Positions 17,708-47,611 of a DNA stretch of 64,000 nucleotides are shown one piece after another. Both the position numbers and the translations under genes were made by a program. Location of the stretch: NCBI GenBank assembly GCA_041744215.1, contig JBGTLG010000004.1, forward strand, positions 32,001 to 96,000, in the 5' to 3' direction. This DNA is from Fimbriimonadales bacterium. Lineage in GTDB: Bacteria; Armatimonadota; Fimbriimonadia; Fimbriimonadales; ATM1. The first letter of the stretch is position 1. Each line of letters begins with the position of its first letter. The notes beneath the pieces were generated by a model. The model was given only the letters and a program-made list of their open reading frames with translations, did not search any database and was not told the DNA's origin.

Positions 17708-18205
17708 ATGAAGTGCCCCTGTTGCGGCTACCCCGAAGATAAGGTCATCGACTCTCGATCGGCTAGGGACGGGGCCGCCATCCGCCGCCGAAGAGAATGC
17801 CTAAAGTGCGGCTACAGGTACACAACGTTCGAAGAGGTTGAGCAAAGACGCCTGATCGTCGTCAAGAAGGATGGCCGGCGCGAGCCGTTCCAAAGGGCGA
17901 AGATTCTCTCCAGCATGGAGATAGCGTGCCGCAAGCGTCCAGTTCCCACAGCAATCTTAGCCGCTGCCTCGGAGGATGTCGAGAGGCGGCTGATCGAGAT
18001 GCCTGAAGACGAGTTCTCGAGCGTAGAAATCGGTGAGCTGATCCTTGAGCGACTTGGCGACATTGATCCGGTGGCCTACATCCGTTTTGCAAGTGTTTAT
18101 CGCGAATTCGACGATCCGGAAGAGTTTAGGGAATTCGTCGCTGCGCTCAAGCGCAGACGAAAACCTACCCGTGCTCGTGGCGTGCCGGAACCTATCGCGA
18201 AATAG
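17708..18205 (+). CDS. nrdR: Transcriptional repressor NrdR
   Basis: MKCPCC...KVIDSR...IRRRRECLKCGYRYTTFE Zn ribbon, ATP cone, VAYIRFASVY. Confidence 0.98.
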   Translation: MKCPCCGYPEDKVIDSRSARDGAAIRRRRECLKCGYRYTTFEEVEQRRLIVVKKDGRREPFQRAKILSSMEIACRKRPVPTAILAAASEDVERRLIEMPEDEFSSVEIGELILERLGDIDPVAYIRFASVYREFDDPEEFREFVAALKRRRKPTRARGVPEPIAK

Positions 18206-18263: not shown

Positions 18264-21200
18264 ATGAAAATCAATCGACGGTTCACGAAGTCTGGCAGCG
18301 ATGCTTACGAGGGCATCGAGTTTGTCTCACGCAAATCGGAGATCCGAAACACGGATGGGTCCAGCGTGTTCTCGATGGAAGACATCATGGTGCCCACGGG
18401 ATGGTCGCAAGTTGCGACAGACATCCTTGCACAGAAGTACTTCAGAAAAGCAGGTGTTCCACAGGAGGACGGGTCGACCGGATCAGAACGAGATTCCCGG
18501 CAGGTTTTCAATCGCCTTGCAGGCTGCTGGCGGTTCTGGGGCGAGAAGCACGGCTACTTCGACACGGAAGCGGACGCCCAGGCGTTTTGCGACGAACTAT
18601 GCAACATGATGGCTCGCCAAATGGCTGCTCCTAACAGCCCGCAGTGGTTCAACACTGGACTTCACTATGCTTATGGGATCACCGGACCGGCGCAGGGGCA
18701 CTATTACGTCGACCCGGAGACCGGCGAAGTCAAAAAGAGCGAAAACGCGTACGAGCGACCGCAGCCCCACGCGTGCTTCATTCTTTCCGTCAAAGACGAT
18801 CTCGTAGGGCAAGGCGGTATCATGGACCTTTGGACGCGTGAGGCTCGCATCTTCAAATATGGGAGCGGCGTTGGGACAAATTTCTCGAGTCTCCGAGGTG
18901 AAGGTGAATCGCTAAGTGGCGGAGGAAAGTCGAGCGGGCTGATGTCGTTCCTGCGTGTCGGCGACAGGAGCGCGGGGGCGGTTAAGTCTGGCGGCACGAC
19001 TCGGCGCGCCGCGAAGATGGTCTGTCTCGATGTCGATCATCCAGATATCGAAGACTTTATAGATTGGAAAGTGATAGAAGAGCAAAAGGTCGCGTCGCTG
19101 GTGGCGGGATCAAAGCTCTGCAACCTTCACCTAAACGCAATAATCAAGGCATGCCATGGGTGGCGAAACGAAGATGAGAGGTTCGACGCCAGGAAAAACG
19201 ACGAACTGCGAGTCGCGATCGCTGCGGCGAAAGGAGCAGAGGTTCCACTCAATTACATTCAGAGAGTTATTCAACTTGCTGAGCAAGGCTACAAAGGCAT
19301 CGAGTTTCCCATCTACGATAGCGATTGGAACTCTGAAGCCTATCTCACTGTCAGCGGACAGAACTCGAACAACTCCATTCGAGTTTCGAATGACTTTCTC
19401 AAGACTGTCGAAGCAGGCGGCGATTGGAATCTCACTAATCGCACAACCGGCGAAGTGGCAAAGAAAGTAAGCGCTAAAGAGATTTGGGATTCGATTTGTT
19501 TCTCCGCATGGTCGTGTGCCGATCCAGGTCTGCAATACGATACTACAATAAACGAGTGGCACACTTGTCCGGAAGGAGGGAAGATCAACGCTAGCAACCC
19601 CTGCAGCGAGTATATGTTCCTCGATGACACTGCCTGCAATCTAGCGAGCCTCAATCTTTGCTCATTCTATGATCCGACCACGCAAACGTTTGATGTCGAA
19701 AGCTACAAGCACGCAATCCACCTCTGGACAATCGTTCTTGAGATCAGCGTGCTTATGGCACAGTTTCCCAGCAAGGAGATTGCACAGCTCTCATACGACT
19801 ATCGAACGCTTGGGCTGGGATATGCAAATCTCGGCGCGCTGCTCATGCAGATGGGCATACCTTACGACAGCCCTCAGGGCAACGCGATCACGGGCTGTCT
19901 GACCGCGATTCTTGGGGGCGAATCGTACGCGACGTCTTCCGAGCTCGCACGAGAAATCGGCCCGTTCCCTCGGTATCACAAGAATCGTGACCATATGTTG
20001 CGAGTGATTCGGAATCACCGGCGCGCAGCATACAATACTGGCCCGAACGAATACGAAGGCCTCAGTACGGCGCCAATGGGAATCGACCCCGACGAGGCAC
20101 CGACAGAGATGCTCAAAGCCGCACGCGTAGCGTGGGATCGCGCGCTTGAACTCGGCGAAGCACACGGATATCGGAATGCGCAAGTTACGGTGCTCGCGCC
20201 GACAGGAACGATCGGTTTGATCATGGACTGTGACACGACCGGGATCGAGCCTGACTTTGCCCTCGTAAAGTTCAAGAAACTTGCGGGTGGTGGCTACTTC
20301 AAAATCATCAACCAGTCCGTGCCGATAGCACTTGAACGGCTGGGCTACAACATGGAGCAAGTCGAAGACATCATCAGCTATTGCATGGGCTCAGGAACTC
20401 TCCTCGGATCTCCGACGATCACACACGATGACCTCAAACAACGGGGATTCGATGATGAAGCGATTGATAGGCTCGAGAAAGCGCTGGCATCCTCATTCGA
20501 AATCAACTTCGCCTTCAATCACTATGTCCTTGGGCGTGACTTCTGCATTGACAAACTCGGCCTATCAGCTGAGCAAATTGATGACTGGAGCTTCAATCTG
20601 CTCCTTGCGCTCGGGTTCTCACAGGACGACATTGATGAGGCGAACAACTACGTCTGCGGGACCATGACCGTCGAAGGTGCACCACACCTTCGCCTCGAGC
20701 ACTACTCCATTTTTGACTGCGCAAACAAGTGCGGCAAGATCGGAAAAAGATACATCACATATGAAGGACACATCCGAGCGATGGCGGCCGCACAGCCATT
20801 CATTAGTGGTGCGATTAGCAAGACCATCAATCTGCCGAGCAACGCGCTCGTTGATGATATTGCGAAGGCCTATGTGCTGAGTTGGAAGCTTGGGCTAAAA
20901 GCGAACGCACTGTATCGCGATGGCTCAAAGCTGAGCCAGCCCCTAAACAGCGCGCTTGACGATGCGGCGGCAGCGATCATGGAAATCGACTCGACCTTGT
21001 CTCTGCCCGCGCAGCACGCGCAGAAACTTGTGTACCGTTACATTGCCAAGCGGCGGTTGCTGCCTGCTCGTCGTCGCGGCTACACCCAGAAGGCGAGAGT
21101 TGGCGGACACAAAGTCTATTTGAGGACCGGAGAGTACGAAGACGGATCGCTCGGCGAAATCTTTGTCGACATGCATCGTGAAGGAGCAGCATTCAGAAGC

Positions 21201-21755
21201 CTTATGAATTGCTTCGCGATCTCAATCTCCCTAGGCTTGCAATACGGTGTGCCGCTCGAAGAGTTCGTCGATGCATTTTGTTTCACTCGATTTGAGCCCA
21301 ACGGAATGGTCGGCGGCAACGATCACATCAAGATGGCTACGTCCGTGATCGACTACATCTTCCGAGAACTTGCTGTAACGTACCTCGGTCGCGCCGACTT
21401 CATGCACGTTTCGCCGGAAGACCTGAGAAGTGACACGATCGGGAAACCGCAGCAGGAGGCCGACTTCACCGAGGAAGTGATTGTTGACGAGAACCACGGA
21501 GATCGCCCAGTACCAGGGCAAACAACCGAGAACCACGAGGGTGCGGGATTCAGACCGGATCGCCCTAATGGGCACGCTCTCTCGGAGCCAATTCGTGTGG
21601 CATCTGGAGGGGCCGAAATCGAGGCGAAGATTCGACAGGCGCGCCTTCAGGGTTATGAGGGTGATCCCTGTAACGAGTGCGGCCAATTCACGCTCGTTAG
21701 AAATGGCACATGCCTGAAGTGCCAGTCTTGTGGCGCTACGAGCGGATGCTCCTAA
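18264..21755 (+). CDS. nrdJ: Class II (adenosylcobalamin-dependent) ribonucleotide reductase
   Basis: [36 protein letters not shown] motifs; C-terminal TSCPD-like domain and CxxC...CxxC. Confidence 0.97.
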
Positions 21756-37131: not shown

Positions 37132-39267
37132 ATGGCTGCAACAGCGAACGATCCGCAAACGGTGATGCTCACCATAAACGACGTCGAGATTGAGGTGCCC
37201 AAAGGGGAGCTCATCGTCGAGTCGGTCAAACGCATCGGCCTCGAGATACCCATTTTTTGCTACCACTCCCGATTGAAGCCGGTCGGTATGTGCCGCATGT
37301 GCCTCGTAGATGTCGGCTTCAAGCAGCCCGATGGTTCCGTCCGGATGATGCCAAAGCCGCAGGCAGGCTGCACCCTCCCCGCGGACAACGACATGGTCGT
37401 CTACACCGATACCGAAAACGTGAGGAAGGATCGGAAAGGCGTCTTGGAGTTTCTACTCATCAACCATCCTCTTGATTGCCCGATCTGCGACCGTGGCGGC
37501 GAGTGCCCGCTTCAAAACAACACAATCTTCTATGGCCCTTCCACCACGAGGTATGTCGAAATCAAACGCCACTTGCCTAAGGCATTTCCTCTCAGCAAGT
37601 ACGTGACACTTGACCTGGAGCGATGCATCCAGTGCGGCCGTTGTGTAAGATTCACCGAAGAGATTAGCGGTGACTCGCAACTTGCGTTCAGATTTCGGGG
37701 TGCGATGATGCAGCCGAGTACTTTCGAACTGACGGATTTCGAAAGCCGATTCAGCGGAAACGTGATAGAGATTTGTCCGGTAGGAGCCTTAACTTCGTCC
37801 GAATACCGATTTCGGGCGAGGCCTTGGGACCTCCAGACGAAGCCTTCGATCTGCACCGAGTGCTCCAACGGTTGCAACACATGGTTCGATTACCGGGTCT
37901 CGTCACTCGTCCGAATCAACGGACGCACAAATGAGGCGGTGAACGAGGAGTGGACGTGTGATAAGGGTAAGTTCGGGCAGCAGTATTTAGACTCGCCGGA
38001 TCGACTCACGGAAGTCTTTGTCCGTGATCAAAACAAGTTGGTGTCATCGGATTGGGCAGCCGCATTCCGTGGGATCTCCGACGCGTTCCAAGCTGCCGGT
38101 TCCAATTCCGCAGCGCTCGTTGGAGGCAAGGCGTCCAATGAGGACATCTTCATGCTCAAGCGGCTCTTTAAGGAAGTGTTTGGGTCGGACAACATCGATC
38201 ATCGCTGGCGAAAGCACAATCCAAAAGTAGATGCTCTCACTCGCGTGACTACTCCGATCGCGAGTTTTGAAAGCGAGCCTGTTATCTTTGTCTTTGGAAA
38301 CAATCTCGCTGAAGAGCAGCCGATTCTTTTTCTCAGAATTCGAAAGGCTTGGTCCAACCAAGATGCGAAAGTGGTTGTCGCGTGCCACGAGCCGTGCGAA
38401 GCCGATAACTTCGCTCATGTATCGCTTCGCTACAAACGTGGCACCGAGGCGGTACTTGTCGGAGCGATTCACAATGCGATCACGGGTACGGGTGGCGTGG
38501 ATGCAGTCGAAGCCGCAAAGATAACTGGCGTTGGCGAAGAGGCAATACGCCGAGCAGCCGAGGCGATGAAGAGCGGATTCGCGCTCGCTGCAAGTCGCTC
38601 GCTATATGACCTTCCAAACGGCGAACATGTCGTTGGCGCGCTAAACAACCTAACAATCGCAACGAACACTTCGAGTAAGTTCAATCTATTCGCGACATCC
38701 GCCAACGAACAAGGCGCACGGGAGATAGGATTTCTGCCGGAGAGCGGTGGGTTGAACACCCAAGAGATACTCGAAGCATGCGCAGCAGGCAAGGTCAAGG
38801 CACTCTGGCTCTTAGAATGCGACCCGATCCTGCAGTATCACGACAAAGATCTCGTCGAGCGAGCGCTCGAAGGCGTGGAGTTCCTTGTCGTTCAAAATCA
38901 CATGCGATCAGAGTGCGCCCAGTTTGCAAGCGTTCTGCTCCCCGCCTGCGCATTCAGTGAGAAGGAGGGGACCTACACGAACCTCGAAAGGCGAGTTCAG
39001 TTGGTCAAAGCGATCATCGCGCCAAAGGGAACCGCCAAGCCAGCGTGGATGGCGTTTGGTGAATTGCTGCTAAGGCTCCAGGGCACCCCACCTCCGTTCC
39101 ATGTACACGAGATACTCAGTCAACTCGTTGAAACACTGCCAGCTTTCCACCCAGTCGATTATCCAAACCTCAAGGGCGAGGGTGTGCTACTAGGCCCAGT
39201 GCCGCCCGCCGAACCGCGAATGGTAGATGTCGAATACACTGCCGTGGAGGTATCCCCAGCCACGTAA
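37132..39267 (+). CDS. nuoG: NADH-quinone oxidoreductase subunit G
   Basis: FCYH..CRMC (N1b), HPLDCPICD..GEC (N5), CIQCGRC...CPVGAL (N4), CTECSNGC...C (N7). Confidence 0.96.
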   Translation: MAATANDPQTVMLTINDVEIEVPKGELIVESVKRIGLEIPIFCYHSRLKPVGMCRMCLVDVGFKQPDGSVRMMPKPQAGCTLPADNDMVVYTDTENVRKDRKGVLEFLLINHPLDCPICDRGGECPLQNNTIFYGPSTTRYVEIKRHLPKAFPLSKYVTLDLERCIQCGRCVRFTEEISGDSQLAFRFRGAMMQPSTFELTDFESRFSGNVIEICPVGALTSSEYRFRARPWDLQTKPSICTECSNGCNTWFDYRVSSLVRINGRTNEAVNEEWTCDKGKFGQQYLDSPDRLTEVFVRDQNKLVSSDWAAAFRGISDAFQAAGSNSAALVGGKASNEDIFMLKRLFKEVFGSDNIDHRWRKHNPKVDALTRVTTPIASFESEPVIFVFGNNLAEEQPILFLRIRKAWSNQDAKVVVACHEPCEADNFAHVSLRYKRGTEAVLVGAIHNAITGTGGVDAVEAAKITGVGEEAIRRAAEAMKSGFALAASRSLYDLPNGEHVVGALNNLTIATNTSSKFNLFATSANEQGAREIGFLPESGGLNTQEILEACAAGKVKALWLLECDPILQYHDKDLVERALEGVEFLVVQNHMRSECAQFASVLLPACAFSEKEGTYTNLERRVQLVKAIIAPKGTAKPAWMAFGELLLRLQGTPPPFHVHEILSQLVETLPAFHPVDYPNLKGEGVLLGPVPPAEPRMVDVEYTAVEVSPAT

Positions 39268-39290
39268 CAGCGTCAGGACCTCAAGAGGAC

Positions 39291-40568
39291 ATGCAAACGA
39301 CGACGATTCTTGCCCAGGCTAGCGAGATAAGCGGCGAAGACACCGTATGGTGGGCGCTGCTTCGCATTGGCATTATCGTCGGGTTCCTACTAGCCGTCGT
39401 GCCGGGCATCATTTGGTGGGAAAGGCGCTTGCTGTCCTGGTTCCAAGATCGCATCGGCCCGAATCGCGTCGGACTCTTCGGATTCCTGCAACCCATCGCA
39501 GATGGAATCAAGCTGTTTCTAAAAGAAGAGGTAGTGCCGGATAAAGTTGACAGACTGATTTACATGATTGCGCCCGCGGTTGCGCTCTTTCCAGCTTTCG
39601 TCATACTCGCGACGACCCCGTGGGGCCCAAACACGTTGCTCACTCCAATTGCGGACGTCGACATCGGCATCTTGTGGGTTCTCGCGATCTCGTCGCTCGG
39701 AGTGTACGGCGTCGTGCTCGGCGGCTGGGCATCGAACAACAAGTATTCGCTACTTGGTGGACTTCGCAGTGCGGCGCAACTCGTCAGCTATGAACTCGCG
39801 ATGGGAGTAGCTCTTTACAGCGTCGCGCTTCCCTCCGGTTCATTGAGATTGACAGAAATGGTACAGCGACAGTTCGAGCCTCTCTACGGTATTGAGTGGC
39901 TGCAAAGCTGGTTTATTCTCACTCCATTCGGACTGATTGCGGGCATCATCTTCTTTATCTGCATGGTCGCCGAAACAAACCGCGCGCCGTTCGATCTTCC
40001 AGAAGCGGAATCCGAGCTCATCGCTGGATTCCATACTGAGTACTCGTCGATGAAATTCGCAGTGTTCTTCATGGGCGAATACGCGACGATGCTCGCTTTT
40101 TCCGCGATTTTCGCAGTCTTGTTCTTCGGAGGATGGAGCCCCGTTCCTCTCAACCTTGAGTACCTCGCAAACCTCGCTGCAAACAATGGAATGGGATGGC
40201 TGTCATCTGCATTAACTTTCCTTCTCAACCCATGGCTCGCCCCTGTGTGGTTCCTCGGCAAGACGACTCTCTTCCTAACATTCTTTATCTGGATTCGTGC
40301 CACTCTCCCGAGACTTCGTTATGACCAGCTGATGGCAGTAGGATGGAAGTATCTGTTGCCGATCGCCGCACTCAACTTCGTCGTCGTCGCGATTTGGATG
40401 ATGTATGGATGGCCCGCGATGTTCGCAGCCTTCGGACTCCTCATTCTTGTCTACGCGATGTACGTGGCAGTAGTCAGAATGCCGAGGGCGAAAAAGTTTG
40501 GTCCAACACTCACTCTTCTCGACATCCCCGCAAACACCGACCAAACAATTGAGGTGACCAAGTCATGA
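39291..40568 (+). CDS. nuoH: NADH-quinone oxidoreductase subunit H
   Basis: ERR...QDRIGPNRVG, LQPIADGIKL, AETNRAPFDLPEAESEL, LPRLRYDQLM. Confidence 0.97.
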   Translation: MQTTTILAQASEISGEDTVWWALLRIGIIVGFLLAVVPGIIWWERRLLSWFQDRIGPNRVGLFGFLQPIADGIKLFLKEEVVPDKVDRLIYMIAPAVALFPAFVILATTPWGPNTLLTPIADVDIGILWVLAISSLGVYGVVLGGWASNNKYSLLGGLRSAAQLVSYELAMGVALYSVALPSGSLRLTEMVQRQFEPLYGIEWLQSWFILTPFGLIAGIIFFICMVAETNRAPFDLPEAESELIAGFHTEYSSMKFAVFFMGEYATMLAFSAIFAVLFFGGWSPVPLNLEYLANLAANNGMGWLSSALTFLLNPWLAPVWFLGKTTLFLTFFIWIRATLPRLRYDQLMAVGWKYLLPIAALNFVVVAIWMMYGWPAMFAAFGLLILVYAMYVAVVRMPRAKKFGPTLTLLDIPANTDQTIEVTKS

Positions 40569-41068
40569 ACGTGGAAACGGTCGCGTTCATGATTCTTGCG
40601 CTTCTCGCAGTCGTTTCGGCTGTAGGAGTGATCGCATTCAAAAGCCCTGTGCGGAGCGCTATCTGCCTGGCGGGCAACTTCTTCATCCTCGGCGTTCTCT
40701 ACTTCATGATGAACTACGATCTGATCGGAATAAGCCAAATCTTGGTTTATACAGGGCTCATCATGATGCTCTTTCTGTTCGTCATTCTCTTGCTAAACCT
40801 CAGTGCGCCGCAAATGCTCCAAGAAAAGAGCTATATCAGATGGTGGGGAGCGTTCGCAGTCGCTGGAGCTCTCGGTATCGTCGTCTTCTCCCAAGTCGTA
40901 ATGCCGCTTGAATGGGCGCTCAGCCCGACGTCGAATCCCGAACTCGGAACAACAAAGTCCGTCGGCACCGCGCTCTTTTCAAACTACGTGTACGCGTTTG
41001 AAATCTGTAGCATTCTCTTGCTCGTCGGAATCGTGGGCTCAATACTGCTCGCAAAGAGGAGAGGGTGA
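40565..41068 (+). CDS. nuoJ: NADH-quinone oxidoreductase subunit J
   Basis: QILVYTG.IM.LFLFVI.LL, LFSNY.YAFE..SILLL; ATGA overlap with nuoH. Confidence 0.93.
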   Translation: MNVETVAFMILALLAVVSAVGVIAFKSPVRSAICLAGNFFILGVLYFMMNYDLIGISQILVYTGLIMMLFLFVILLLNLSAPQMLQEKSYIRWWGAFAVAGALGIVVFSQVVMPLEWALSPTSNPELGTTKSVGTALFSNYVYAFEICSILLLVGIVGSILLAKRRG

Positions 41069-41412
41069 TGGAAGGCATACCTTTGATGGGGTTCCTCGCC
41101 CTCGGCGCGGTGATGTTTCTTATCGGTGCCGTCGGTGTGACGATGAAGCGAAACCCGATCGTCATCTTCATGTGCATCGAACTAATGCTCAACGCCGCAA
41201 ATCTGACATTCCTCGCTTTTGCTCGCTATCACGAAACGCCGCTGCTCGGCATGATTTCGAGAGAGAACACGGTTATGAACGGACAGATGGCTGTGGTGTT
41301 CGTAATGGCCGTCGCCGCGGCCGAAGTCGCGATCGGGCTTGGAATCATCATGGCCATCTTCAGGACAAAAGACTCGATCGATATCGATGAAATGAACATT
41401 TTGAGAGGATGA
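41068..41412 (+). CDS. nuoK: NADH-quinone oxidoreductase subunit K
   Basis: RN.IVIFMCIELMLNAAN, AVAAAEVAIGL. Confidence 0.95.
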   Translation: MEGIPLMGFLALGAVMFLIGAVGVTMKRNPIVIFMCIELMLNAANLTFLAFARYHETPLLGMISRENTVMNGQMAVVFVMAVAAAEVAIGLGIIMAIFRTKDSIDIDEMNILRG

Positions 41413-41440
41413 AGAAACTGCAATCCAAACGGAGGGTGCA

Positions 41441-43642
41441 ATGCCTGAACTGATGGATCCGTCGATGCCGGCGGGTCTCAATCTCGTTTGGATGATCTTG
41501 CTGTTGCCGCTCGCAGGATTCCTGTTCCAAGCGGCATTCGGCAGGATCATCGAACGCGCATTCGGTCCAGCTCTTGGCCGAAGAATTCTCGGGTTTATGG
41601 CAGTCATTCCGATCGCTGTGGCGTTTGTGATCGGGTGCATACTCGTTACGCACATCGCTAATCAACCCTCGGACGCGCGCGTCGCAATCAGCACCTGGTT
41701 CGACTGGATTAACCTCCAGTCAATCCATATTCCTTTCGAGTTGCGCGTAGATCCACTCTCTCTCACGATGGTGCTGATCATCACGGGCATTGGTGCACTG
41801 ATTCATCTTTATGCCACAGGTTACATGGCTGCAGACAAGGACTATCCGCGGTTCTTCACTTATCTAAACCTCTTCATCGCATTCATGTTGATGCTCGTTC
41901 TGGGCAACAACCTCGCGCTTGTATTCATAGGCTGGGAAGGCGTTGGACTTTGCTCCTACCTGCTCATTGGGTTCTGGTACGAAGACATTGAGAACGCGAA
42001 GGCGGCGAACAAAGCGTTCATCGTGAACAGAATCGGCGACTGGGGCATGGCTCTTGGCATGTTTCTTATCGCCGTCGTGTTCGCTTCGAGCCAAAATCTG
42101 CTCGGTGGCGAAACGCGCTATCTCAGTTTCGACGTGATTCTCCCTCTCGCGCAGCAAGTTGTGGGCGAGTGGGGCGGCGCAGTCGTTTGGGCGATTCCGC
42201 TACTGCTGTTCATCGGAGCAGTAGGCAAGTCCGCGCAGTTTCCTCTGTACCTCTGGCTGCCCGATGCGATGGCGGGCCCGACTCCCGTCTCCGCGCTCAT
42301 TCACGCGGCGACGATGGTCACGGCTGGAGTCTATCTCGTCACGCGATGTCACGTTTTCTTCGAGATGTCCGCTTTCGCGATGGGAACGGTCGCCGTCATA
42401 GGCTGCTTCACTGCGATTTTCGCTGCGACGATCGCGTGGGGACAATACGACATCAAGAAAGTGCTCGCCTACTCGACTGTTTCGCAACTCGGATTTATGT
42501 TTCTCGCATGCGGAGTCGGTGCCTTCTCCACAGGAATGTTCCATGTCACGACCCATGCGTTCTTCAAAGCACTCCTCTTCCTTGGTGCGGGCGCGGTGAT
42601 TTACGCAATGGCACACAACCAGGACTTGCGAAACTATGGTGGGCTGCGGAAGTACATGAAGATCACGTACTTCTCAATGCTCATGGGGTGGCTCGCAATC
42701 TGCGGAATCCCAATCTGGGCAGGTTTTTGGAGCAAAGACGACATTCTCGGAAAAGTCTTTGCCAGCAACGATTATTGGCATGCACAAGGGTGGGCGATCA
42801 ATCCTGTCGTCCTTTGGGCGATAGGCCTTGTGACCGCAGTCCTCACCGCGGCCTACATGACGCGAATGTTTTGGCTCACATTTTTCAGCGGGGAAGAGCG
42901 ATGGAGGAACTTGCCGGACCCGCAGCACACGCATCGTCCTCATCACGTCCATGCGCACACCGCCCATCATGATGAAGACCCCGATGAACATGGTTTTTTC
43001 CTCGAAACAGTCGAAGAAGAGGGCCACCACGACCATCACGACCTCGGACCCACACACGAACCGAGAGAGGTCAAACCGTCAATGTGGTTCCCGCTCGTCG
43101 TCCTCGCTGCGCTTTCAACCGTCGGAGGACTGATCCTATCAGGAGGCTATCCTGTAACTGAGGTCTTCGGTGTCCATACGACCAATCTGTTCAAAGAATG
43201 GAATGCTGTTTCCGCACAGCCATCTGTATTGCCTTCGAAGGAGCTGTTCCAAGTCTCGCACTCGACCGAGGCAGTTCTTATCCTACTCTCGATCGCCGCT
43301 GGCCTGGCTGGCATTTTGTGGAATCGTGCTCGGTACAAGAAAGGTGTGCCAAAGAACGAAGACACGAAGCTCCGACGTTTCGCAGGTTCGCAGTGGGGTT
43401 ACGACAATGCAATGTATCAGGCGTTTGTCAACGCCGGCGGCAAACTCTCGGAAGCGTCCTATAAGCTGTTCGACAAGGGGATCATCGATACGCTCCTCGT
43501 CAATGGAGTGCCGTGGTTGGTCGCATCGACTGGAAAGCTCTTCCGTAAGACGCAGTCTGGGTATGCCAGGTCTTACGCGATGGCGATTCTCATCGGCGCG
43601 CTTGCAATCGCGTCCTACATCTTCTACTCGGTTTCAAGGTAA
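41441..43642 (+). CDS. nuoL: NADH-quinone oxidoreductase subunit L
   Basis: GWEGVGLCSYLLIGFW, GKSAQFPL..WLPDAMAGPTPVSALIHAATMV, THAFFKALLFL. Confidence 0.97.
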   Translation: MPELMDPSMPAGLNLVWMILLLPLAGFLFQAAFGRIIERAFGPALGRRILGFMAVIPIAVAFVIGCILVTHIANQPSDARVAISTWFDWINLQSIHIPFELRVDPLSLTMVLIITGIGALIHLYATGYMAADKDYPRFFTYLNLFIAFMLMLVLGNNLALVFIGWEGVGLCSYLLIGFWYEDIENAKAANKAFIVNRIGDWGMALGMFLIAVVFASSQNLLGGETRYLSFDVILPLAQQVVGEWGGAVVWAIPLLLFIGAVGKSAQFPLYLWLPDAMAGPTPVSALIHAATMVTAGVYLVTRCHVFFEMSAFAMGTVAVIGCFTAIFAATIAWGQYDIKKVLAYSTVSQLGFMFLACGVGAFSTGMFHVTTHAFFKALLFLGAGAVIYAMAHNQDLRNYGGLRKYMKITYFSMLMGWLAICGIPIWAGFWSKDDILGKVFASNDYWHAQGWAINPVVLWAIGLVTAVLTAAYMTRMFWLTFFSGEERWRNLPDPQHTHRPHHVHAHTAHHDEDPDEHGFFLETVEEEGHHDHHDLGPTHEPREVKPSMWFPLVVLAALSTVGGLILSGGYPVTEVFGVHTTNLFKEWNAVSAQPSVLPSKELFQVSHSTEAVLILLSIAAGLAGILWNRARYKKGVPKNEDTKLRRFAGSQWGYDNAMYQAFVNAGGKLSEASYKLFDKGIIDTLLVNGVPWLVASTGKLFRKTQSGYARSYAMAILIGALAIASYIFYSVSR

Positions 43643-43645
43643 TAC

Positions 43646-45343
43646 ATGAATACACTCGCGCAGACGACTACACAAGGCATGGGGCTTTTGAGCCTTATGA
43701 TCTTCATCCCGCTCATTGGAGCGGGAGTCCTCGCGCTGATCCCTCGCGAGTATGCGTCGTGGCATCGCTACCTTGCGCTTCTCTGCTCCTTCGTCGCGTT
43801 CCTAGTTTCCGTATCCACCTGGTACTTCTTTAGTGGGAACACTTACCACTTCCAGTTTGTCGAGTCGATCCCATGGATCCAATCTCTTGGAATAACTTAC
43901 AAACTTGGAATCGACGGAATCAGTCTTTGGCTGATCCTGCTGACCACGTTCATTACCGTGATTTCAATCTGGTTCAGCTTTTATGTGAAAGAGCGAGCCA
44001 AAGACTTTATGATTGCGTTGCTGGTGCTGGAAACCGCGATGCTCGGAGTGTTTTGCGCACTTGATCTGATCCTGTTTTATGTCTTCTTCGAGGCGACCCT
44101 CGTCCCAATGTACATCCTTATTGCTGTCTGGGGTGGCAAGAACCGTCAGTACGCATCAGTCAAATTCTTCCTCTACACGTTCCTCGGGTCCATTTTCATG
44201 CTCGTGGCCATCATCGCGATGCGGTTTATGGCTGGGTCGTTCGACCTGATCGTCCTGCAAGACCTCGCGAGCCGCGGCGAACTTGCCGTTGACAATGTGC
44301 AGATGTGGCTGTTTGCGGCCTTCGCATTGGCGTTCGCGGTGAAAGTCCCAATGTTTCCCGTGCATACGTGGCTGCCAGACGCGCACACCGAGGCGCCAAC
44401 TGCCGGCTCAATCATTCTCGCCGCAGTCATGCTGAAGATGGGAGCTTATGGCTTCCTTCGTTTCTGCCTCCCTCTGTTCCCAGAAGCGACGATACAGGCA
44501 GCGCCATTCATGATGGGGCTCGCGGTAGTCGGCATCATTTACGGAGCAATCATGGCTGCCGTGCAAACAGACTGGAAGCGGCTCGTCGCTTACTCGTCGG
44601 TGAGTCACCTGGGCTTTGTCATGCTTGGGATCTTCGCGCTGAATCACAATGGACTGACAGGCGGCGTGCTTCAATCAATCAACCACGGGATAAGCACTGG
44701 CGCATTGTTCCTCATGGTCGGAATGATCTACGAAAGAACGCACACGCGACTGTTCAAAGACTACAGCGGCCTCAAACGGCAAATGCCAATGTTCGCGATG
44801 CTTTTTCTGATTATCATGCTCAGCTCCGTCGGACTTCCGAGCATGAACGGATTCATTGGGGAATTCCTGACACTGCTCGGAGCATTCCAAGCTGGCTTCG
44901 AGGGCGCAGTGCCAATGTGGATGCCAATCGCCGCTGGCGCGGGAGTCGTACTCGCTGCGGTCTACCTGCTGTGGATGTTTCAGAGAGTCTTCTACGGACC
45001 AAATGATAAGCCTGTGATAAAGAGACTTCGCGACATCAAGCCCTGGGAACAAGCATCAGTTTGGCTACTCGTCGTTTTCGTGTTCTGGGCAGGACTCTAT
45101 CCGACTTTCTTTACGCAAAAGATGGAAGCGAGCATCAACGCGGTGAGACATCAAACCTTGTTGCCGCAGGGTGAGCGACCGACATGGGCGGACAAGAGTA
45201 TCGACATCAATGGCAACGGCGACATTGTTGAGGCTCTCGAACGGGACTCCGAGGATCTGGGAACCTGGACACAAGGGCGAGTGCTTGTGCAGAACAACCA
45301 CTACCTCCAAAAGGGTGAGGCTCGGGCGGTGGCAGTTCGATGA
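43646..45343 (+). CDS. nuoM: NADH-quinone oxidoreductase subunit M
   Basis: GIDGISL, FYVFFE, KVPMFPVHTWLPDAHTEAPTAGS, LVAYSSVSHLG. Confidence 0.97.
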   Translation: MNTLAQTTTQGMGLLSLMIFIPLIGAGVLALIPREYASWHRYLALLCSFVAFLVSVSTWYFFSGNTYHFQFVESIPWIQSLGITYKLGIDGISLWLILLTTFITVISIWFSFYVKERAKDFMIALLVLETAMLGVFCALDLILFYVFFEATLVPMYILIAVWGGKNRQYASVKFFLYTFLGSIFMLVAIIAMRFMAGSFDLIVLQDLASRGELAVDNVQMWLFAAFALAFAVKVPMFPVHTWLPDAHTEAPTAGSIILAAVMLKMGAYGFLRFCLPLFPEATIQAAPFMMGLAVVGIIYGAIMAAVQTDWKRLVAYSSVSHLGFVMLGIFALNHNGLTGGVLQSINHGISTGALFLMVGMIYERTHTRLFKDYSGLKRQMPMFAMLFLIIMLSSVGLPSMNGFIGEFLTLLGAFQAGFEGAVPMWMPIAAGAGVVLAAVYLLWMFQRVFYGPNDKPVIKRLRDIKPWEQASVWLLVVFVFWAGLYPTFFTQKMEASINAVRHQTLLPQGERPTWADKSIDINGNGDIVEALERDSEDLGTWTQGRVLVQNNHYLQKGEARAVAVR

Positions 45344-46104
45344 ATTGTCGCGAGAGATTGACGGCCGCTGGCAGAGGAGGCCAGACAGACCGTGCGCCCT
45401 GGTTTGCTTGGTTTCCTAACGCCTCCTACCTCAATCTTTTATCATTCGCTCGTGAATACAAGCCCGACGCAATTGTCACCTCATCACACGACGATGCAAC
45501 ATCCTTCCTTGATGAGCTCGGAAGCGACGGACCGGCAGTACTCTTCGAAGTGGTGAACCCCTACGGACTCGCGCTCGTCGACGACCTCGATCTAAACGCG
45601 ATGATCCAAGCAGACCCGTATGAAGGCCATGTGCTGCATGCGAAGTATTCGACAGTGATCGCTGAAACGCTCGAGTGGGCGATGGATGCAGGGTGCGATG
45701 GAGTCTTCTACCGCCTCCTCGGCGCCGCACCGCAGTGGTCGACGCCGATGCAGTACGGTGGACATCACCTCGGGCGCGATCGTGATCTGCTCGACTCTGT
45801 GAATGAGGCGCGATTTAACGTTGTCTATGTCGATGGCGGACCTGGCGTCTATCTCGACTTCGTTAGCGATCTCCCAGCATCGGCTTTTGCCTGGGACGAA
45901 GCCGAAAGCGGAATCTCGCCGAGCGAGGTCCGCGAGCTGCGGATGGGAACGATCGCTTGCGGATTGTTCGGTGATAAAAAGAAGCTTTGGAAAGACTTCG
46001 ATGCAACCGGTTTGGTTTTCTTTGCGAGATCAACGTTCGATGCCGACTTTGAACAAATCGCTCTCGAGTGCAATCAGCTGAGGAGTCACGCGCCGCATGA
46101 ATAG
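45340..46104 (+). CDS. Hypothetical protein with uroporphyrinogen decarboxylase (URO-D/MtaA)-like fold, within the nuo operon
   Basis: N-terminal MNCRERL.AA.RG...DRAP typical of the URO-D superfamily; GCDGVFY; overlaps both nuoM and nuoN. Confidence 0.7.
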   Translation: MNCRERLTAAGRGGQTDRAPWFAWFPNASYLNLLSFAREYKPDAIVTSSHDDATSFLDELGSDGPAVLFEVVNPYGLALVDDLDLNAMIQADPYEGHVLHAKYSTVIAETLEWAMDAGCDGVFYRLLGAAPQWSTPMQYGGHHLGRDRDLLDSVNEARFNVVYVDGGPGVYLDFVSDLPASAFAWDEAESGISPSEVRELRMGTIACGLFGDKKKLWKDFDATGLVFFARSTFDADFEQIALECNQLRSHAPHE

Positions 46105-47611
46105 CGCAATTGTCCAACCCGCGCCGATTCCATGGGATGCCTTGCTGCCTCTCATCGTCGTTGCCTCCACAGGCCTGCTTGCAATGATCATCGAGATGAT
46201 CTGGCCCCGTCGCAGCAATGACTTGATCGTATGGGTTTGCATTGCGGGACTTGCCGCAGCGGCTGGCACGGTTGTCTGGCATTGGCACCTGCCCCCAATC
46301 GAATCATTCGGCCTTCGCTTCGACAACGCGGAAGGTTCGCTTGGTGGTGGTCTTTTCATCCATGATCGGTTCGCACAGATCATTCAGCTTACGTTGATAG
46401 CGACCGCGTTCCTGACCGTCCTGTTTAGCGAGGGCTATCTGCGCGAAAAGAGGCTTGCGTTTGGCGAGTTTTATCCGCTCGTCATGTGGGCCACGATGGG
46501 TGGGATTATCATGGCAACGTCGAGGGACTTGCTAATTGTCTTCCTGGGATTAGAAACACTCTCGATCGCCCTCTACGTTCTTGCTGGCCTTAGCCAGAAG
46601 GAGAAGCGATCGCAAGAGTCTGCGCTCAAGTACTTCTTGCTCGGTGCTTTCGCTTCGGGCTTTATGCTGTACGGCATCGCATTGATCTACGGCGCTACCG
46701 GGACTACCCATGTGGAAGGAATAAGTGCGCTCTTTGCGCTTAACCTGCCGAATCCAACCGCAGTCAACATCGCGTATGCAGGGTTCGGCCTTATTCTCGT
46801 CGGGTTCGCCTTCAAGGTGGCGCTGGTTCCGTTCCACATGTGGACCCCCGATGTGTATCAGGGCGCGCCGACTGTTGTAACGGGATTCATGGCCGTGGCG
46901 TCGAAGGTCGCGGCGTTCGCCGCATTGGTTAGGTTCCTCGACGCGTCCATGCCGCTCAGTGCTGTCTGGATTCCCATTCTTACCGTCCTCGCGGTCGTCA
47001 CGATGACAGTAGGAAATCTAATCGCGATCGCGCAAAAAGATGCGAAGCGCATTCTCGCGTATTCGAGCATCGCACAAGCAGGATACATTCTTGTCGGCAT
47101 AATCGCATGGGCGAAGGCAAGCTCTCTACCTGACGTGTCCGTCGGCTTCCATGCCGTCATCTATTATCTGATCGCGTATAGCTTTACGACCATCGGAGCG
47201 TTCGCTGTGTTGTCCGTTGCGGCGCAGAAAGGTAAAGAGGGAACGCTCGTCGAAGACTTGAATGGCATGTGGCGCCGCGCGCCGTTCCCTGCTGCAATGA
47301 TGATCATCTTCATGGCTTCGCTTGCAGGAATTCCAATCACCGGCGGATTTTTCGGCAAGCTATTCATCTTCCAAGACGCGGTTCAAACCGGAATGTTGTG
47401 GCTCGCACTCGTTCTCGCCGTGAACTCGGTAATCAGCGTCGCTTACTACTTGCGAATTGTCCAGGCAACACTCAAAGATCCCGACGTTCACCCGACAAAG
47501 TTTGGGGCCGTCAACGTTGGACTTTTCGCGGCTTGCTTTGTGTGCGCGCTGGGCGTATTCGGAATCGCGGTGTTCGCGGATCCGCTGCTTCGCTGGATTA
47601 GCGGTGGGTAG
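46097..47611 (+). CDS. nuoN: NADH-quinone oxidoreductase subunit N
   Basis: ESALKYFLLG, FKVALVPFHMWTPDVYQGAP, KRILAYSSIAQAGY, SLAGIP. Confidence 0.97.
   Translation: MNSAIVQPAPIPWDALLPLIVVASTGLLAMIIEMIWPRRSNDLIVWVCIAGLAAAAGTVVWHWHLPPIESFGLRFDNAEGSLGGGLFIHDRFAQIIQLTLIATAFLTVLFSEGYLREKRLAFGEFYPLVMWATMGGIIMATSRDLLIVFLGLETLSIALYVLAGLSQKEKRSQESALKYFLLGAFASGFMLYGIALIYGATGTTHVEGISALFALNLPNPTAVNIAYAGFGLILVGFAFKVALVPFHMWTPDVYQGAPTVVTGFMAVASKVAAFAALVRFLDASMPLSAVWIPILTVLAVVTMTVGNLIAIAQKDAKRILAYSSIAQAGYILVGIIAWAKASSLPDVSVGFHAVIYYLIAYSFTTIGAFAVLSVAAQKGKEGTLVEDLNGMWRRAPFPAAMMIIFMASLAGIPITGGFFGKLFIFQDAVQTGMLWLALVLAVNSVISVAYYLRIVQATLKDPDVHPTKFGAVNVGLFAACFVCALGVFGIAVFADPLLRWISGG

Follow-up and report, generated by a model that had tools for sequence, protein, structure and literature searches.

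What is a gene for a soluble protein doing between nuoM and nuoN, among the membrane-arm genes of respiratory complex I? The arrangement occurs in the window, by which we mean the whole stretch of 64,000 nucleotides of Fimbriimonadales DNA that was analysed. The gene, here termed X, belongs to a partial nuo operon with the order nuoG-H-J-K-L-M-X-N, and a convergent mlaE adjoins the 3' side of nuoN. The features of the locus are as follows.

37132..39267, forward strand: nuoG, the first gene of the partial nuo operon
39291..40568, forward strand: nuoH
40565..41068, forward strand: nuoJ, in ATGA overlap with nuoH; nuoI is absent between nuoH and nuoJ
41065..41412, forward strand: nuoK
41441..43642, forward strand: nuoL (733 residues)
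43646..45343, forward strand: nuoM (565 residues; TIGR01972, E = 2.7e-177), with some 60 hydrophilic residues that carry its C-terminus past the end of the TIGR01972 model
45340..45343, forward strand: ATGA overlap, combining the ATG of X with the TGA of nuoM
45340..46104, forward strand: gene X, 254 residues, encoding an acidic soluble protein with a predicted URO-D/MtaA-fold (β/α)8 barrel in which, by alignment, the catalytic residues of the two enzyme classes are missing
46080..46085, forward strand: GAGGAG, a Shine-Dalgarno-like motif for nuoN, inside the codons for L-R-S near the C-terminus of X
46097..46104, forward strand: 8-nucleotide overlap of X and nuoN, with the nuoN ATG within the last codons of X (ATGAATAG) and the TAG stop of X ending at 46104
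46097..47611, forward strand: nuoN, the last gene of the operon (504 residues; TIGR01770, E = 2.7e-122)

The first-pass annotation had described X as a soluble open reading frame of 254 residues that shares four nucleotides with the nuoM stop and eight with the nuoN start, and both coordinates and hydropathy agree with this description. The protein, whose N-terminus reads CRERLTAAGRGGQTDRAP, is without a membrane segment, its highest Kyte-Doolittle mean over 19 residues being 1.03, and has a pI of 4.54 and a net charge of -20; lacking a signal peptide as well as a membrane segment, it is probably cytoplasmic. X is a real gene and not a chance reading frame: 180 homologues match it at E≤1e-3, pN is 0.163 and pS 0.705 in the comparison with the closest locus, and its G+C content (0.559) is like that of the window (0.552). 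X is thus under purifying selection; the same comparison gives pN/pS values of 0.055/0.707 for nuoM and 0.121/0.703 for nuoN. [quoted passage not shown]

The AlphaFold2 model of X (pLDDT 95.9, pTM 0.92) is a compact (β/α)8 barrel with eight strands, and a short form of the protein from Fimbriimonas ginsengisoli is modelled with a pLDDT of 95.6. For both the long and the short form, the top Foldseek matches in the PDB are 4ay7 and 4ay8 (TMq 0.72-0.76; E = 4.5e-8 and 2.7e-6), the former deposited as a methylcobalamin:coenzyme M methyltransferase; UroD entries reach a TMq of 0.75, and generic barrels score about 0.5 or below. In these models, URO-D/MtaA enzymes are therefore the nearest solved structures to the barrel, which is the feature by which a member of the URO-D superfamily would be recognised. 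At the level of sequence the relationship is visible mainly in relatives of X. While X itself matches no family in Pfam (E≤1) or NCBIfam, 17 of 27 relatives match PF01208 (URO-D) at E≤1, with a best value of 5.2e-8 and with all matches confined to profile positions of about 139-286 out of 346; five of the eight relatives examined score 26.8-32.7 bits on this model (gathering score 23.9), over profile positions of about 139-280 only. Weak matches were also found to TIGR01463 (7/27 relatives, best E = 0.0094) and PRK06252 (6/27, best E = 3e-4), neither of which is matched by X, and a single relative matches the hemE model TIGR01464 (E = 0.25). In an Atlas search, 29 of 30 feature matches were URO-D clusters, and hhalign places columns 76-177 of the X family on residues 167-270 of HemE. 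Sequence searches of the PDB, with the family profile at cut-offs of E≤1 and of E≤10 as well as with the single sequence P0009, returned chance matches at E≥0.79 and no URO-D protein. In a further profile search at E≤10, the best 120 of 298 matches all belong to the same short family, giving no bridge to canonical URO-D proteins. The origin in the URO-D/MtaA superfamily that had been proposed from the N-terminus of X is nonetheless supported, by the predicted fold, by the profile matches of relatives and by the Atlas search, with the one correction that X itself matches no URO-D profile.

The X proteins among the matches listed are 171-256 residues long. Across 27 sequences with 32-74% identity we observed 18 invariant columns, grouped after strands β3-β6, and the strongly conserved polar or aromatic residues are Y124, Y139, D147, Y171, D173, D177 and W185. 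The zinc site of MtaA/CmuA enzymes consists of a His-x-Cys motif plus a distal cysteine. In the X family no alignment column exceeds 53% for Cys or His (43 sequences) and neither residue occurs among the invariant or near-invariant columns; the family thus has no MtaA-type zinc site. The loss of the H-x-C site had been read from VVYVDG (residues 161-166) standing in place of ILHICG, and the alignment bears this out indirectly: the segment is strand β5 by strand equivalence with HemE, where it is aligned with TLFTKG of the E. coli protein, and it is variable in the family. As for the residues characteristic of HemE, MAFFT sets AWFPNA of X against MRQAGR of E. coli HemE, whose arginines we take to be N-terminal substrate-binding residues, and the family consensus has no conserved arginine there. 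The FSD aspartate of E. coli HemE, equivalent to the catalytic Asp86 at the end of strand β2 in the human enzyme, is a serine in X (S48-S49-H50); the position is variable across the 27 sequences, being Asp or Glu in several short forms and Gly, Val, Pro or Lys in others, in a register that was fixed by visual inspection, from the D-A with which strand β2 begins in both proteins, and that differs from the MAFFT alignment of this strand. At the C-terminal histidine (NLGHG), VFFARS of X lies against VFNLGHG, and the segment is missing from the short forms. Judged from these alignments, the X family has lost the residues on which catalysis depends in the two known enzyme classes.

It may be asked whether X has remained an enzyme, or a module that binds a small molecule, and has acquired a new specificity, with chemistry tied to complex I. 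Its ligand could be a quinone, a lipid, a tetrapyrrole or a corrinoid, and the chemistry could even be driven by an antiporter-like subunit, as with CupA on NdhF3. The invariant polar and aromatic residues lie at the C-terminal ends of β3-β6, the canonical active-site face of a TIM barrel, and may just as well indicate that an active site has been kept, which speaks for an enzyme; the strong constraint indicated by pN/pS agrees with this, and CupA/CupS offer a precedent for a soluble catalytic module that is encoded next to the genes of antiporter-like subunits and lies on their cytoplasmic face (PMC6981117). We nevertheless consider this explanation rather unlikely, given that the known catalytic sets of the superfamily are all missing, with no conserved Cys or His and with the HemE arginine motif, aspartate and C-terminal histidine absent, that the barrel is some 100-140 residues shorter than those of the superfamily enzymes, the short form lacking helices α1 and α7, and that the data name no candidate substrate.

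We surveyed the nuoM-nuoN interval in a set of 80 species-level loci, kept from 91 relatives found, of which 75 are named Armatimonadota, mostly Fimbriimonadales. NuoM lies directly 5' of X in all 73 loci that have upstream DNA, and nuoN directly 3' in 77 of 79; the linkage to nuoN is not absolute, since the two exceptions (L012 and L052) have no nuoN downstream. Across the syntenic loci the identity of NuoM spans 35-91%. Stop and start codons overlap at 66 of 73 nuoM/X junctions (-4 in 60, -1 in 6), and X and nuoN overlap at 64 of 77, most commonly by 8 nucleotides (n=31). Motifs resembling a Shine-Dalgarno sequence precede X in 57/73 loci and nuoN in 43/75, compared with 65 of 1160 random nuoM positions (6%). 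None of the 80 loci kept has an X homologue in a context other than nuo. X is thus present and syntenic in relatives. Absence, loss of synteny or a predominance of unrelated contexts, which the first-pass annotation had named as counting against its proposal, was not observed among these loci, and the translational coupling that the annotation had proposed on both sides is upheld by overlaps kept across the 80-species set. The conserved order and overlaps amount to conserved encoding and co-expression with core subunits, as would be looked for in a complex I accessory protein.

Operon co-membership is by itself no proof of a common complex, and unrelated genes do occur in operons. X could be a hitchhiker that arrived in the operon once, was kept merely for suitable expression at this site and has nothing to do with complex I, serving for example a cofactor or tetrapyrrole side pathway. 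It matches no complex I family model and evolves faster than the Nuo proteins (mean Kimura distance 0.98, compared with 0.41-0.68), as might be expected of such a gene. A passenger sits less easily with a position that is constant over loci so divergent in NuoM, with start/stop overlaps maintained at both junctions, with a nuoN Shine-Dalgarno motif that lies within the coding sequence of X, and with the want of any other context among the loci kept; we judge this explanation unlikely. Least probable, and in our view very doubtful, is that X, far from being a passive subunit, is docked at the cytoplasmic side of NuoM, NuoN or NuoL as an active catalytic or ligand-gated unit, with a chemical reaction or the binding of a ligand in the barrel coupled to proton translocation. 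If true, the CupA principle would have arisen independently a second time, now in the respiratory complex I of a heterotroph and from a URO-D-type barrel that had gained a new active site.

For X as an accessory protein of the membrane arm, we propose the following course. A miniaturised TIM barrel, descended from the URO-D/MtaA enzyme superfamily, appears to have been fixed in the operon (nuoG-H-J-K-L-M-X-N) ever since the ancestor shared by Fimbriimonadales-type Armatimonadota, and would have been recruited there for the membrane arm. Its synthesis would be kept in step with that of NuoM and NuoN through termination-reinitiation, and the product would either be a supernumerary subunit or assist the assembly of the antiporter-like subunits. 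The conserved face at the C-terminal ends of β3-β6 would be a docking or ligand-binding surface; we infer the docking role, and the uniform acidity of the family (medians over 43 sequences: pI 4.61, net charge -15) would suit contact with the cytoplasmic loops of membrane subunits, which carry positive charge. That X associates physically with complex I is suggested by the structure of the operon.

Several places in the membrane subunits were considered as marks of such docking. The C-terminal tail of NuoM and a His-rich loop of NuoL were rejected as docking sites for X, because both would face the periplasm, given the 14- and 16-helix topology established for NuoM and NuoL, whereas a signal peptide is lacking from X. 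Compared with solved NuoN/ND2 chains, NuoN has no large insertion at which docking might be expected, and among proteins of 446-2000 residues none was seen in which X is joined to a Nuo subunit, which is weak evidence. Mirror-tree covariation of X with NuoH, J, K, L, M and N over 39 taxa gave r values of 0.12-0.62 (NuoM 0.12, NuoN 0.50, NuoL 0.58, NuoJ 0.62), to be read with the X distances near saturation.

[quoted passage not shown] Its place in the operon appears to have been fixed for as long as an order-level lineage has existed, and it appears to be translated together with NuoM and NuoN. The known accessory proteins of bacterial complex I are few, and to our knowledge none is encoded between core membrane-arm genes or built on a URO-D/MtaA barrel. 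If X is an accessory protein, an enzyme fold would have been recruited into complex I in bacteria too, as happened in mitochondria with NDUFA9 and NDUFA10, and Fimbriimonas ginsengisoli, a cultured aerobe with an X orthologue (P0053), would be a tractable system for learning what such additions do. The family is also a compact, confidently modelled and catalytically remodelled branch of the URO-D superfamily, of about 215-255 residues, that current family models overlook or misname as 'uroporphyrinogen decarboxylase family protein'.

Among known proteins, the best structural match for the long and short forms of X is provided by the MtaA/CmuA-type methylcobamide:coenzyme M methyltransferases, represented by the M. 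mazei structures 4ay7/4ay8, and the N-terminal motif R-x-L-x-A-x-x-G-x-x-x-D-R-x-P is common to both. These enzymes have about 340 residues, whereas the X forms, with 210-256, are shorter and without the conserved zinc His/Cys, and X is encoded inside nuo and not beside corrinoid proteins. HemE/UroD (PF01208; TIGR01464) shares the barrel fold and a similar N-terminal helix motif, and its central β4-β6 can be aligned with the X family, both in the Pfam matches (profile positions of about 162-271) and by hhalign. The full-length protein has about 340-360 residues, however, making X some 100 residues shorter, and the MRQAGR motif, FSD aspartate and NLGHG histidine of E. coli HemE are all lacking from X.

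Turning to complex I itself, Nqo15 of T. thermophilus is one bacterial supernumerary subunit, and subunits of this kind, as far as is known, attach to the peripheral arm or to the junction of the arms and are for the most part not encoded between core membrane-arm genes. Other lineage-restricted additions to the 14-subunit core are the NDUFS4, NDUFS6 and NDUFA12 homologues of P. denitrificans and an A9-like protein of M. smegmatis (PMC12361115). Such subunits resemble X in their lineage-restricted occurrence, but none is known to have a URO-D fold. In cyanobacteria, the genes for CupA/CupS (ChpY) stand in an operon with ndhF3/ndhD3. The proteins lie on the cytoplasmic face of NdhF3 in NDH-1MS, and CupA, a zinc protein with CO2-hydration chemistry, is described as all-helical (PMC6981117), whereas X is a predicted TIM barrel without conserved metal ligands. 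We found no homology of X to CupA/ChpY, X matching no Pfam family at E≤1. NDUFA10 is a globular accessory subunit with a nucleoside-kinase fold on the matrix (N) side of ND2, the homologue of NuoN, and has been proposed to be a ligand sensor (PMC8762328). It differs from X in having an unrelated fold and in being a eukaryotic protein encoded in the nucleus, and structures have shown its membership of the complex, where that of X is inferred. As a protein of an enzyme family recruited in a single lineage, NDUFA10 of metazoan complex I is nevertheless the closest functional analogy to X as an accessory protein.

On the + strand of the window lies part of a nuo operon, in the order nuoG-H-J-K-L-M-X-N, where X denotes the 254-codon ORF between nuoM and nuoN.

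Genes of the nuo operon in the window
37132-39267, + strand, nuoG
39291-40568, + strand, nuoH
40565-41068, + strand, nuoJ
41065-41412, + strand, nuoK
41441-43642, + strand, nuoL
43646-45343, + strand, nuoM
45340-46104, + strand, X, ORF between nuoM and nuoN
46097-47611, + strand, nuoN

The start codon of X (ATG) shares the sequence ATGA with the nuoM stop, and the nuoN ATG overlaps the 3' end of X, 8 nt back from the end of the X TAG. The X protein contains no hydrophobic segment (highest 19-residue Kyte-Doolittle mean, 1.03) and is acidic (pI 4.54, net charge -20); the string VVYVDG occupies residues 161-166. The coordinates of X, both overlaps and the VVYVDG string had been reported in the first-pass annotation, and all were reproduced on the window sequence. 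The nuo cluster (37132-47611) is split: its first gene is nuoG, which follows a divergent DUF1579 gene, and neither nuoA-F nor nuoI was found within the 64-kb window. nuoH and nuoJ overlap by ATGA with no nuoI between them, and the related loci likewise leave no space for nuoI at this place.

X is a real gene under constraint. A word-indexed search returned 180 homologues at E ≤ 1e-3, of 171-256 aa among the best 120 matches listed, and an exhaustive search of 1.84 billion representatives returned 211 clusters at the same threshold, all of 256 aa or less among the best 150 listed. Relative to the closest locus (74% identity in X), pN and pS were 0.163 and 0.705 for X, 0.055 and 0.707 for nuoM, and 0.121 and 0.703 for nuoN, ratios that are only rough because synonymous sites are saturated; the G+C content of X is close to that of its surroundings. 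The family falls into two length classes (alignments A1, A3 and A4). The long form (254-256 aa), found in the window, in four related loci (L001-L004) and in a few metagenome proteins, has an additional helix after β1 and a longer β7-β8 region, and the short form (about 205-232 aa) is commoner, its model lacking helices α1 and α7. In the databases the Fimbriimonas ginsengisoli orthologue is named 'uroporphyrinogen decarboxylase family protein', and most other members among the matches listed are 'hypothetical protein'.

X itself matches no Pfam or NCBIfam model at E ≤ 1, and a plain sequence search of the PDB found no relatives of the family. The Pfam URO-D profile (PF01208) was matched at E ≤ 1 by 17 of 27 aligned family members (best E 5.2e-8), and its gathering score was passed by five of eight members checked singly; every match is confined to the central part of the profile, about positions 139-286 of 346. 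Weak NCBIfam matches were to MtaA/CmuA (7/27), methylcobalamin:CoM methyltransferase (6/27) and hemE (1/27). The AlphaFold2 model of X, built from a 27-sequence alignment (pLDDT 95.9, pTM 0.92), has eight strands with flanking helices, and that of the 220-aa F. ginsengisoli orthologue (pLDDT 95.6, pTM 0.92) has eight strands with α1 and α7 missing. For both models, Foldseek ranked a Methanosarcina mazei methyltransferase first in the PDB (4ay7/4ay8; the former deposited as methylcobalamin:coenzyme M methyltransferase), followed by UroD, with TMq values of 0.56-0.76, and generic TIM barrels came lower, at about 0.5 or less. An Atlas feature search gave URO-D clusters as 29 of its 30 matches. 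The origin in the URO-D superfamily proposed in the first-pass annotation is thus upheld, because the model fold matches and relatives of X match the profiles, and not through a match of X's own.

We set E. coli HemE against the family by hhalign, which placed family columns 76-177 on HemE residues 167-270 (E 0.0063), and by MAFFT --add. The two share an N-terminal helix motif, DRYLRALLRQPVDVTPVW in E. coli HemE and CRERLTAAGRGGQTDRAPWF in X. In the MAFFT alignment AWFPNA of X lies opposite MRQAGR of HemE; VFFARS lies opposite VFNLGHG, a segment that the short forms lack. Strand β2, which MAFFT places differently, was registered by eye on a common D-A start and the model secondary structure, and in this register the position opposite the aspartate of HemE FSD shows no conservation. 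In strand β5, VVYVDG aligns with HemE TLFTKG; we take this to be the strand that bears H-x-C in MtaA-type enzymes. The absence of H-x-C from X, noted at first pass, was borne out across the family: no Cys or His column exceeds 53% of sequences among 43 members, and neither residue is among the invariant or nearly invariant columns. Judged from these alignments, X is neither HemE nor MtaA, because the family does not conserve the residues of both that we presume to be catalytic (MRQAGR, FSD, NLGHG and H-x-C). Invariant in 27 sequences are P74, P93, D120, G121, G128, A129, P136, M137, Y139, G140, G141, D147, Y171, D173, F174, D177, P179 and W185, most of them at or after the C-terminal ends of strands β3-β6 in the model; these ends form the functional face of TIM barrels. 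This conserved polar face would suit an enzyme that has kept an activity, or a module that binds a ligand, in either case linked to complex I, but every known catalytic set has been lost and the barrel is shrunken, and we consider that explanation unlikely.

In a scan of relatives, one genome per GTDB species, 91 carried X and 80 loci were retained, with deposited names Fimbriimonad (53), Armatimonadota/Armatimonadetes (15), 'Chthonomonas sp.' MAGs (7), 'bacterium' (3) and 'archaeon' MAGs (2). Using tblastn with the Nuo proteins of the window, we found nuoM adjoining X upstream in all 73 loci with upstream DNA, the other seven beginning at a contig edge, and nuoN adjoining it downstream in 77 of 79, one further locus (L070) ending inside X. 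The two exceptions, both MAG loci (L012, 6624-12548; L052, 6609-12570), keep nuoM-X and have unrelated ORFs downstream and no nuoN, an arrangement that may be genuine or may stem from a chimeric assembly. No homologue lay outside the nuo context among the 80 loci, so the link to the nuo operon proposed at first pass stands in this comparison. The two loci deposited as archaeal (L039 and L044; Methanoregulaceae archaeon and uncultured archaeon) carry a full Fimbriimonadales-type nuoH-J-K-L-M-X-N block, with 50-57% identity to the window in most genes, 64-65% in NuoK and 32-38% in X; they are likely mis-binned, because their nuo genes resemble those of the other loci.

Junctions were scored with the candidate start codon nearest to each, a choice that favours overlaps; despite this bias, the start codon at exactly -4 (4-nt overlap) at 60 of 73 nuoM/X junctions is far from chance, and six more overlap by 1 nt. 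X and nuoN overlap in 64 of 77 loci, by 8 nt (31), 11 nt (11), 4 nt (11), 14 nt (4), 1 nt (3), 17 nt (2), 10 nt (1) or 102 nt (1); 11 others have gaps of 0-12 nt, and in two no start codon was found. A Shine-Dalgarno-like motif lies 5-18 nt upstream of X in 57/73 loci and upstream of nuoN in 43/75; random nuoM positions gave 65/1160. In the window the nuoN motif, GAGGAG (46080-46085), falls inside the X codons for L-R-S, residues that the long-form proteins conserve. That X is a hitchhiker with a function unrelated to complex I, as its faster evolution might suggest, is more doubtful still, given its invariant position and its coupling on both sides.

Directly before the helix MWFPLVVL, NuoL has a His/Asp/Glu-rich insert (42923-43096, residues ~495-552) that contains PQHTHRPHHVHAHTAHHDEDPDEHGFFLETVEEEGHHDHHDLGPTHEP and presumably, by the known topology, would face the periplasm. 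Such an insert occurs in at least 45 of 63 related loci whose NuoL match spans the region, with 6-22 His among those 45 listed and a HGFFYT-D/E-EE core conserved in many; the loop may bind metal or collect protons. Past the end of the TIGR01972 model, NuoM continues for about 60 hydrophilic residues at its C-terminus (45152-45340, residues ~503-565), a tail that we take to be probably periplasmic by the known topology; in 43 orthologues R511, P512 (invariant) and W514 are conserved, with the consensus NPxGxRPxWxD. Elsewhere in the window, an NrdR gene (17708-18205) is followed by a class II (B12-dependent) ribonucleotide reductase of 1163 aa (18264-21755), whose barrel domain is matched in two stretches and which has a TSCPD domain.

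We found no description of X in the literature on Fimbriimonas/Armatimonadetes, nuo/complex I, uroporphyrinogen decarboxylase or accessory subunits, whose supplements might list the gene. The F. ginsengisoli genome paper reports a whole set of complex I genes, its main text containing neither 'nuo' nor 'uroporphyrinogen' (PMC4072686); the main text of an HMM survey of complex I has neither 'Armatimonad' nor 'uroporphyrinogen' (PMC12361115), and a term look-up in that of the phylogenomic survey of Spero et al. gave no match (PMC4453560).

The X barrel is soluble, acidic and remodelled in its catalytic residues, and throughout an order-level lineage its production has kept pace with that of NuoM and NuoN. 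Because of this, the most economical reading, to which we give an even chance, is that X serves the membrane arm as an accessory protein in the cytoplasm, either built in as a supernumerary subunit or acting as an assembly factor. On this reading X would be an enzyme-fold protein recruited to complex I, with putative physical binding to it. Known systems offer comparisons: NDUFA10, of the nucleoside-kinase family, sits on the matrix side of ND2 and is proposed to have turned nucleotide sensor (PMC8762328); the CupA/CupS module lies on the cytoplasmic face of NdhF3 (PMC6981117); and complex I accessory subunits are known in M. smegmatis and P. denitrificans (PMC12361115).
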